From Escherichia coli O127:H6 str. E2348/69 (GTDB lineage Bacteria; Pseudomonadota; Gammaproteobacteria; Enterobacterales; Enterobacteriaceae): a stretch of DNA of 64,000 nt. Positions 27,286-28,073 of the stretch are shown piece after piece. The notes under the pieces are model-generated. The model had not been told where the DNA came from. It searched no databases and saw nothing but the letters and a program-made list of their open reading frames with translations. Position numbers and translations under genes: made by a program. Position 1 is the first letter of the stretch, and the number at the start of each line of letters is the position of its first letter. The stretch is taken from NCBI RefSeq assembly GCF_000026545.1, contig NC_011601.1. One strand, 5' to 3'.

Positions 27286-28073
27286 GCCTCTGGACTGTTC
27301 CAGTGCGGTACGTTGTTTTCAGGTGAGGTCAGTTTGTTCTGTCTGCTGATCTGCAGACGTCTGGCAAGTTTTTGCTCCCATTGCGCATGGTGGAAAGCCT
27401 TACCCTCGGCCATCCAGTAAACCCTGAACTCTGCAAGCTCCTGCGGTGTTGGCTGGCAATCCAGGTTAATACCCTGCAGAGATGACACCCGGAGAAAATC
27501 ATCCGATGGTGACCAGAGCTCATGCATGACAAATTTCCCGAATTGCCCAAGTCCACCAGGAGGGACAAAGTTGTTAATTACGGCGTTGTTGGCGTCAGGT
27601 TCAGGCGGTACTAAACCACCAGTTTTATCGCCCCTCTCCTTCTCTTGGTTATATGACTGGTTAACTGATAGGTTCTGCATCCCGTTTTTGGGATCATTCA
27701 ACTTCCCGTTTTTGGGATCATTCAACTTCCCGTTTTTGGGTATACTCCCAATTTTGGTAACATTACCGTTTTTGGGTATACTCCCAATTTTGGTAACATT
27801 ACCGTTTTTGGGTATGTTTAAAGAGAAAACCCGGACCCTTCTTGTTGCCCCTTTTCTTTCTCCTGTATCTGAAATTAACCCCATACCGATGAGCGAAATC
27901 AGCCCTGCCTGAACCGTTTTTTTATTCAGGCTTGTGTCGGTAACCAGGCGTTCGATGCTTGGATAACACAGGTTATATTCATCGGCTCGATCAGCCATCG
28001 AGAGCAGGATGAGTTTCAGTGATGAGCTGCCCGGATTTGTTTTCCATGCCCACTCTGTTGCGTGTCTGCTCAT
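27267..28073 (-). CDS. Replication initiator O-like protein with internal origin iterons
   Basis: N-terminal HTH-like region; tandem peptide repeats NIPKNGNVTKIGSIPKNG and KLNDPKNG encoded by DNA iterons; immediately upstream of and overlapping the P-like gene. Confidence 0.55.
   Translation of the reverse strand: MSRHATEWAWKTNPGSSSLKLILLSMADRADEYNLCYPSIERLVTDTSLNKKTVQAGLISLIGMGLISDTGERKGATRRVRVFSLNIPKNGNVTKIGSIPKNGNVTKIGSIPKNGKLNDPKNGKLNDPKNGMQNLSVNQSYNQEKERGDKTGGLVPPEPDANNAVINNFVPPGGLGQFGKFVMHELWSPSDDFLRVSSLQGINLDCQPTPQELAEFRVYWMAEGKAFHHAQWEQKLARRLQISRQNKLTSPENNVPHWNSPEAWEDFL
27681..27815. repeat. Origin-like iterons inside O-like gene
   Basis: Core CCGTTTTTGGG repeated 5 times with 24, 24, 36, 36-bp spacing. 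Confidence 0.5.

Follow-up and report, generated by a model that had tools for sequence, protein, structure and literature searches.

The prophage and its replication module

The DNA analysed here, a stretch of 64,000 nucleotides that we refer to as the window, contains an epsilon15/phiV10-like (Uetakevirus) prophage. The O-like gene discussed below and the DNA around it match the chromosome of the host, E. coli O127:H6 EPEC E2348/69, with 100% identity. The prophage is integrated adjoining guaA, an attachment site reported for Uetakevirus phages (PMC9782041), and its integrase is encoded at 35086-36339. The immunity region (28290-29422) shares 94.6-96.5% identity with those of the Salmonella phages epsilon15, SPN1S and SPC32H, and the replication module is of the phiV10 type. 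The genes and the promoter of this region are as follows (all positions are those of the window).

26485-27270, minus strand: lambda P-family helicase-loader gene (Pfam Phage_lambda_P PF06992, E=7e-56 for 26485-27285; RefSeq annotation)
27267-28073, minus strand: O-like replication initiator gene, 268 aa (RefSeq WP_000086426.1)
Residues 18-67 of the O-like protein: HTH_36 domain, winged-helix/HTH (Pfam E=1.9e-10)
About residues 87-132 of the O-like protein: linker encoded by the repeats
Residues 181-250 of the O-like protein: DnaT-like domain (Pfam DnaT E=4.3e-16; PDB DnaT matches with E about 1e-20)
28437-28670, minus strand: cro-position gene, 77 aa, first of the rightward operon, by position the homologue of epsilon15 gp39
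28706-28733, minus strand: P_R-like sigma-70 promoter, TTGATT-16-AATAAT, by consensus match only
28826-29422, plus strand: repressor (Rep) gene (PDB 5D50 chain A, E=4.6e-127; Pfam HTH_3)

In the rightward operon a 66-aa gene lies between the cro-position gene and O/P, and the P-family gene comes directly after the O-like gene, with a 4-bp overlap in RefSeq. The preliminary description of this DNA placed iterons within an O-like gene, and this assignment holds, as indicated by the HTH_36 and DnaT-like domains of the product, by the lambda P-family gene that comes next and by the resemblance of the repeats to lambda iterons. The N-terminal domain of the O-like protein had no BLASTP similarity to lambda O (E=0.49) and was recognised only as Pfam HTH_36. 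For the 77-aa product of the cro-position gene no family assignment was obtained with Pfam. A plus-strand ORF at 27526-27912 (128 aa, with FPFLG repeats) was rejected as an antisense artefact of the repeats.

Rep differs from the crystallised SPC32H Rep (5D50) at 6 of 198 residues (97% identity). In the literature, the SPC32H protein is described as a tetramer on palindromic sites, in which the pairs of DNA-binding domains come from different dimers (PMC9638917). Entry 5D50 also contains the SPC32H antirepressor, which is matched by an 86-aa gene at 3441-3701.

Anatomy of the iteron array

The O-like gene contains an array of seven dyad-symmetric units, which very probably constitutes a replication origin built on the lambda plan; the likeness of some of its words to repressor operators would then be a by-product of the iteron architecture and not a regulatory link. 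The parts of the array and of its flank are listed below.

27678-27815: iteron array, presumed origin, seven dyad-symmetric units of about 18 bp, coding-strand core CCCAAAAACGGG
27678-27695: I7
27702-27719: I6
27726-27743: I5
27744-27761: I4
27762-27779: I3
27780-27797: I2
27798-27815: I1
27636-27677: candidate DNA-unwinding region with degenerate 12-bp repeats (AACCAGTCATAT type), on the promoter-distal side of the iterons
27756-27767, plus strand: first copy of GGTAACATTACC, where the right arm of I4 (GGTAA) meets the left arm of I3 (TTACC)
27792-27803, plus strand: second copy of GGTAACATTACC, at the I2/I1 junction, a product of the 36-bp tandem duplication

The start-to-start spacings of the units are 24, 24, 18, 18, 18 and 18 bp, and each unit follows the plan [T/A][C/A]CC, a 6-bp A-rich spacer and GG[G/T]A, with arms of 4-5 bp. 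On the coding (minus) strand the array begins ATACCCAAAAACGGTAAT / GTTACCAAAATTGGGAGT / ATACCCAAAAACGGTAAT / GTTACCAAAATTGGGAGT / ATACCCAAAAACGGGAAG and continues, each time after 6 nt, with GATCCCAAAAACGGGAAG and GATCCCAAAAACGGGATG. Units I5-I7, nearest to the presumed unwinding side, are canonical or nearly so, and the distal units I1-I4 are degenerate. Relatives of the O-like gene were detected by tblastn, whereas megablast against phages gave almost nothing. A protein-ascertained sample comprised 80 viral contigs, in which 79 arrays were parsed and one locus was not parseable. In the 37 unique arrays from these 79 related prophages, the arms ranked TCCC > ACCC > TACC ~ AACC, and the spacers were AAAAAC or GAAAAC. 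Going by this census, four arm variants are tolerated, among them TACC, which lies one substitution from the commonest.

The preliminary description recognised two 36-bp iterons, each with the operator-like motif. The direct repeat of 36 bp does exist (27727-27762 and 27763-27798, 97% identity), as do the two copies of the motif; the actual unit, however, is about 18 bp long and is present seven times. The 36-bp unit is a pair of degenerate 18-bp iterons that has been duplicated (units 1+2 giving 3+4), and this tandem duplication was found only in the E2348/69 lineage, the relatives having one copy of the junction or none. The motif is therefore present twice, and the two copies are not independent of each other.

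The array occupies codons 87-132 of the 268, between the segments for the HTH_36 and the DnaT-like domain. It could therefore be asked whether the repeats are a feature of the protein only, i.e. a PKNG-rich low-complexity linker expanded by slippage, with the true origin located elsewhere. The array does lie wholly within the CDS, where it encodes PKNGNVTKIGSI twice and PKNGKLND twice, and its copy number varies freely by whole units, so that O genes of 747, 771, 807 and 831 bp are found among E. coli genomes; E2348/69 itself is represented by both 807 and 831 bp, depending on the assembly. Nor is the neighbouring DNA very AT-rich: the A+T content of 27636-27677 is 60-67%, compared with 52% for the gene, and is far less extreme than that of the lambda tract, so that we assign this segment as the unwinding region only weakly, by its position and by analogy with lambda. 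A scan of the O gene found no IHF consensus and a single DnaA-like box, at 27263 at the O/P gene boundary, with none in the array.

Against a purely protein-level origin of the repeats, all canonical copies have the same codons in their 12-nt core. Initiator genes that are just 38-51% identical (those of PPompW prophages and of Edwardsiella phage GF-2) also contain the ACCCAAAAACGGGA motif, and some of the copies there lie in a different frame, encoding TQKR and not PKNG. Since the same DNA motif is kept across reading frames, selection appears to act on the DNA rather than on the peptide. In addition, the units are dyad-symmetric and closely match the lambda iterons at the equivalent position of the gene, and in YDC107_2, a degraded prophage in which the O gene is frameshifted, most of the array is kept, some copies having single-base indels. 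We consider the protein-linker explanation improbable.

If the array is a lambda-plan origin, dimers of the O-like protein would bind the iteron units and the bound dimers would assemble into an O-some-like complex. Formation of this complex would be followed by opening of the flanking DNA, and the lambda-P-like protein would then deliver the host DnaB.

Repressor operators and the iteron junctions

The epsilon15 GenBank record contains four protein_bind sites designated 'repressor', all of the form ATTACC-N5-GGTAA(T). With up to 2 mismatches, the 17-bp palindrome ATTACC-N5-GGTAAT has 17 matches in the window against 1.9 expected. Both observations confirm the earlier proposal that ATTACC and GGTAA are operator half-sites. 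The main groups of operators are the following.

28709-28772: O_R operator cluster, consisting of 28709-28725 (ATTACCTTTCTGGTGAA), 28739-28755 (ATTACCATTATGGTAAC) and 28756-28772 (TTTACCTTTATGGTAAT)
29480-29634: leftward operator cluster, three perfect sites at 29480, 29542 and 29618, flanking a TTGACA-17-GATTAT promoter-like site
26370-26448: operator pair, 26370-26386 and 26432-26448, 62 bp apart, directly downstream of the P-like gene

The O_R cluster is conserved in epsilon15, SPN1S and the E. coli relatives, and the leftward cluster is the counterpart of three annotated epsilon15 repressor sites. The 26370/26432 pair flanks a promoter-like site, and an equivalent site is annotated in epsilon15. 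Further matches were found at 3348, 20594 and 23942. Most real sites are intergenic (3348, 20594, 26370/26432, 28709-28772 and 29480-29634); the site at 23942 lies within an annotated terminase small-subunit CDS. The operators are usually paired, 17-18 or 62 bp apart, and associated with promoters, whereas the array is located inside a CDS.

The spacing between operator half-sites is strictly kept. All ten occurrences of TTACC-Nk-GGTAA in the window have k=5. In 84 related loci (568 kb) we found 435 N5 sites outside the arrays, with 78 unique sequences, as well as one unique N4 sequence and no N6 site outside the arrays. Iterons and Rep operators (epsilon15/SPC32H) have in common the pentamers TTACC and GGTAA and an A/T-rich spacer, but in the operators the half-sites face each other across exactly 5 bp and in the iterons the spacer is 6 bp. 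No unit of the array in the window has both arms of the operator type, and the operator pattern with up to 2 mismatches has no match in 27660-27830. A symmetrised operator PWM built on 22 unique operators gave 15-27 bits for the real sites, whereas the array reached -5.8 and -9.4 bits at best, its half-sites facing non-cognate partners, TGGGTA or CTCCCA, at the 5-bp distance. Judged by spacing and by PWM score, there is no operator in the array.

The 12-mer GGTAACATTACC has exactly two plus-strand copies in the window, the two in the array, and a one-mismatch copy, GGTAACTTTACC, is present at 28750-28761. The earlier description of the arrangement as inverted with zero spacer applies to the hexamers GGTAAC and ATTACC, which do abut; the symmetric pentamers, in contrast, are 2 bp apart (GGTAA-CA-TTACC) and stand back-to-back, i.e. 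in the orientation opposite to that of an operator. GGTAA-N2-TTACC occurs three times in the 64 kb, twice in the array and once where two true operators abut: the junction of ATTACCATTATGGTAAC and TTTACCTTTATGGTAAT is GGTAACTTTACC and reads GGTAAC|TTTACC. In these abutting operators (28739-28772) each half-site has its proper outward partner, while the half-sites of the array have none.

The motif is the junction between a GGTA-type right arm and the TACC-type left arm of the next unit. The units being inverted repeats themselves, their tandem arrangement makes an inverted repeat of every junction as well, and the other junctions in this array read GGGTA-TA-CTCCC and GGGAT-CATTCAAC-TTCCC. The TACC arm is one point mutation away from the canonical TCCC and equals the core of the Rep operator half-site. 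Two 'terminator-like' matches, at 27736 and 27772, were likewise rejected as terminators, being palindromes of iteron junctions.

The occurrence of operator-like hexamers in the array by pure chance, with no structural reason, seems to us extremely improbable. Single half-sites are indeed common in the window (TTACC 123 times, GGTAA 79 times), and a single duplication accounts for both copies of the 12-mer. However, with up to 1 mismatch the 12-mer was observed 3 times against 0.21 expected from shuffles, the motif is common to O genes that are just 78% identical, and a structural cause exists, as neighbouring dyad arms are one mutation from the operator core. The arm census also indicates that the arms are constrained iteron positions. 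The explanation by chance is largely subsumed by that of the iteron junction. As a separate observation, a third copy of CATTACCGTTT is present at 28300 with no partner half-site, which is within the expectation for multiple testing.

The preliminary description left it open whether the half-sites were coincidental or coupled repressor binding to origin function. In the case of direct coupling, Rep or the cro-position protein would bind the half-sites in the distal iterons and occlude the origin in the lysogen; the binding would be weak, or assisted by looping from O_R (~0.9 kb) and from the 26370/26432 pair (~1.3 kb). Such coupling could serve, for example, to keep a related superinfecting phage from firing the origin in trans. 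We find it very unlikely. The half-site pentamers are exact, and GGTAA-N2-TTACC is as rare in the window as stated above. Moreover, the junction is the majority state, found in 57 of the 79 related prophages; the Rep tetramer has two pairs of DNA-binding domains (PMC9638917), and the operators flank the replication module on both sides. On the other hand, the half-sites of the array have no N5 partner, the N5 spacing of the operators is invariant over the 78 unique sites, and the junction is absent from 22 of the 79 relatives (where it is replaced by GGTAATGTTCCC in eleven, GGGAATATACCC in nine and GGTAATTTTACC in one, the unit pair being deleted in one more). All 22 retain 2-3 operators upstream and 1-2 downstream. 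This evidence favours coincidence, in the form of an arm junction, over coupling.

The distribution of the arm variants in other phages points in the same direction. The TACC/TCCC toggle was found in both sub-lineages of the array, which indicates weak constraint. Phages epsilon15, SPN1S and SPC32H, which have the same Rep and the same immunity region, contain a different replication gene and origin with neither the motif nor an adjacent pair of half-sites; in epsilon15 and SPN1S the N-terminal part of this gene is unrelated and has its own repeats, of the GTCCGC/GCGGAC type. Conversely, phages whose repressors are unrelated show these arm variants too. In GF-2 the repressor is of the cI type and the cI-cro intergenic region contains operator-like repeats of the TCACA..TGTGA type, yet the iteron array of this phage contains TTCCAAAACTGGTAAT; PPompW, with immunity of the DicA/DicC type, has GTACCGAAAATGGTTA in its array. 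This comparison indicates that the TACC/GGTAAT arm variants are not tied to this repressor. A search with AAACGGTAATGTTACC gave 120 viral-contig matches, of which ~30 were chance matches in unrelated genes. All genuine iteron-array matches long enough to include flanks were accompanied by operators of the ATTACC/GGTAAT family; the exact junction thus occurs only alongside these operators, and descent and selection are inseparable by this route.

Among the relatives, L177 and L186 have two or three tandem junctions and amplified, perfect internal units, TTACC-GAAAAC-GGTAA, each of which equals an operator plus one extra spacer base. The existence of such perfect TTACC-N6-GGTAA variants speaks for coupling, and the domain arrangement of Rep might tolerate the additional base. 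One could imagine that the degenerate promoter-proximal iterons drifted or were selected towards Rep half-sites and that a Rep tetramer anchored at its operators weakly contacts the origin, but we hold this to be highly improbable. If it were true, the prophage origin would be silent even with O and P supplied in trans by a related superinfecting phage, and a direct lock of the repressor on the origin would be added to lambda-style promoter control. Coupling would, moreover, make Rep one of the few immunity repressors with a direct action at a phage origin; the evidence is against it. The general caution is that tandem dyad-symmetric iterons always yield junction palindromes, and that operator-like words inside iterons should be taken as regulatory only if both spacing and conservation fit.

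Control of replication and related origins

In lambda, repression of the promoter for O/P is the established route of origin silencing. The P_R-like promoter of this prophage overlaps the operator at 28709, adjoins those at 28739 and 28756, and is oriented towards O and P, with the cro-position gene and the 66-aa gene in between. Rep bound at O_R would shut off both the synthesis of O and P and transcription across the origin. Rep control of replication is thus most likely indirect, exerted via the operators over the O/P promoter. The lambda repressor silences its origin through the promoter upstream of O/P (PMC7466680), and promoter repression of this type would already explain silencing here with no direct contact between repressor and origin, which is a further point against coupling.

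The resemblance to the lambda origin extends over several features: tandem dyad-symmetric iterons within the initiator gene, between the segments for its two domains; a P-family gene next to it; and a repressor-controlled promoter upstream. The annotated lambda iterons ATCCCTCAAAACGAGGGA and ATCCCTCAAATTGGGGGA resemble the units described here (compare ATCCCTCAAAACGAGGGA with GATCCCAAAAACGGGAT in this array), and they occupy codons 117-145 of 299 in lambda, compared with 87-132 of 268 in the present gene. There are also differences. Lambda has four iterons with arms of 6-7 bp, whereas this array has seven with arms of 4-5 bp; the flanking region is much less AT-rich here, and the C-terminal domain of the initiator is DnaT-like. 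The lambda repressor is of the cI/LexA type, whereas the one encoded here is of the SPC32H type, a tetramer inactivated by an antirepressor. From the gene and repeat comparisons, the module is predicted to work in a lambda-like manner, but with an initiator from a different family.

The origins of Stx phages 933W and P27 have six iterons, and O binds weakly to the extra ones, which lie away from the AT-rich region (PMC7466680). In the present array it is likewise the distal units, I1-I4, that are degenerate, and in both systems the extra iterons lengthen the linker of the O protein. The initiator, however, belongs to another family, and binding strengths in the present array are read from the sequence alone.

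There are plasmid and P1-type replicons in which the initiator gene has iterons or inverted half-iterons as its operator, the known precedent for a DNA motif with a role in origin function and in repression alike. In those replicons, however, the initiator itself binds both classes of site, whereas two unrelated proteins would be needed here, and the evidence speaks against binding by the second of them.

The array thus appears to be an ordinary lambda-plan origin in a group of phages where it had apparently not been described before; the paper on Uetakevirus ZX5 contains no operator or origin data (PMC9782041). What results is an account, at the level of sequence, of the origin in phiV10-type Uetakevirus prophages; these are common in E. 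coli and present in EPEC E2348/69. The account should be useful for annotation, for building minireplicons and for phage engineering. In GF-2 the O protein has the N-terminal type described here fused to a lambda-O-like C-terminus, and because of this fusion the N-terminal types can be regarded as interchangeable.

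Repressor operators and the Rep/Ant switch

In the window, perfect TTACC-N5-GGTAA sites, which are predicted operators of the prophage repressor Rep, number ten and are spread across the whole prophage, the majority being located ahead of operons.

Perfect TTACC-N5-GGTAA sites of Rep in the window
3348, perfect site
20594, perfect site
23942, perfect site
26370/26432, perfect sites
28709-28772, perfect sites
29480-29634, perfect sites

The spacing within the pairs 26370/26432 and 29480/29542 was exactly 62 bp, and the site at 20594 was likewise paired, at a distance of 62 bp, with a half-site at 20532. 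We also noticed this spacing in the related phage phiV10 (1530/1592 and 4647/4709). Such pairing is compatible with one Rep tetramer bridging two sites.

The perfect operator at 3348-3364 is located immediately 5ʹ of a gene (3441-3701, plus strand) whose 86-residue product matched the antirepressor Ant of Salmonella phage SPC32H (PDB 5D50 chain E, E=2e-54). Because of the Ant match and the operator upstream of it, we infer that the EPEC prophage carries a complete Rep/Ant switch, a full counterpart of the one known in SPC32H.

In 568 kb of related loci, the sole operator-like palindrome with a spacing other than N5 outside the iteron arrays was ATTACCAAACGGTAAT, with a 4-bp spacer. It is one conserved site, present in 15 loci (L153, L162, L165, and 12 others), where it lies downstream of the O-like initiator gene at a distance of about 2.3-2.8 kb, and it was not found in the window.

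Variation of the iteron array and neighboring repeats

The O-like gene was found to differ in length within strain E2348/69: it spans 831 bp in one assembly (NZ_CP059840.2, 2501-3331) and 807 bp in the others (window 27267-28073), a difference of one 24-bp iteron unit. Either slippage has recently occurred between laboratory stocks, or the discrepancy stems from the assemblies. In the O-like genes of two IMG/VR contigs (2579778842_000018 and 2690316311_000004), an 18-bp unit has been amplified in tandem, and as a result the arrays contain two or three GGTAATGTTACC junctions, in which the right arm of one iteron meets the left arm of the next. The inner units of these arrays are perfect TTACC-GAAAAC-GGTAA, that is, the operator half-sites with a spacer of 6 bp instead of 5 bp.

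Directly after the iterons, phiV10 carries three copies of AACCAGTCATAT, a 12-bp tandem repeat encoding NQSY; there are two copies in phiv142-3 and degenerate ones in the window (27636-27677). These repeats may belong to the unwinding region, or they may be no more than linker repeats.

The 11-mer CATTACCGTTT, common to iterons I1 and I3, has a third copy at 28300-28310, just upstream of the 66-aa gene that precedes the O-like gene in the rightward operon. This copy has no partner half-site and probably occurs by chance.

Initiators of related phages and the state of the prophage

The O protein of Edwardsiella phage GF-2 (3001-3843) is a chimera of two initiator families and illustrates domain exchange between them: its N-terminal domain belongs to the family of the E2348/69 O-like protein (51% identity over residues 1-137), with iterons of the same kind, whereas its C-terminal half is lambda O-like. 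The alternative replication gene of epsilon15 (1417-2094, minus strand) and SPN1S (2398-3213, minus strand) contains two clusters of GTCCGC/GCGGAC repeats, around gene nucleotides 50-100 and 330-380, which are probably the module's own iterons.

The E2348/69 prophage may be partly decayed. In the stretch downstream of the replication module (24479-25964), the RefSeq annotation lists three small genes that are truncated or frameshifted, and it also places a pseudogenic tRNA-Gly within the prophage (21057-21169).
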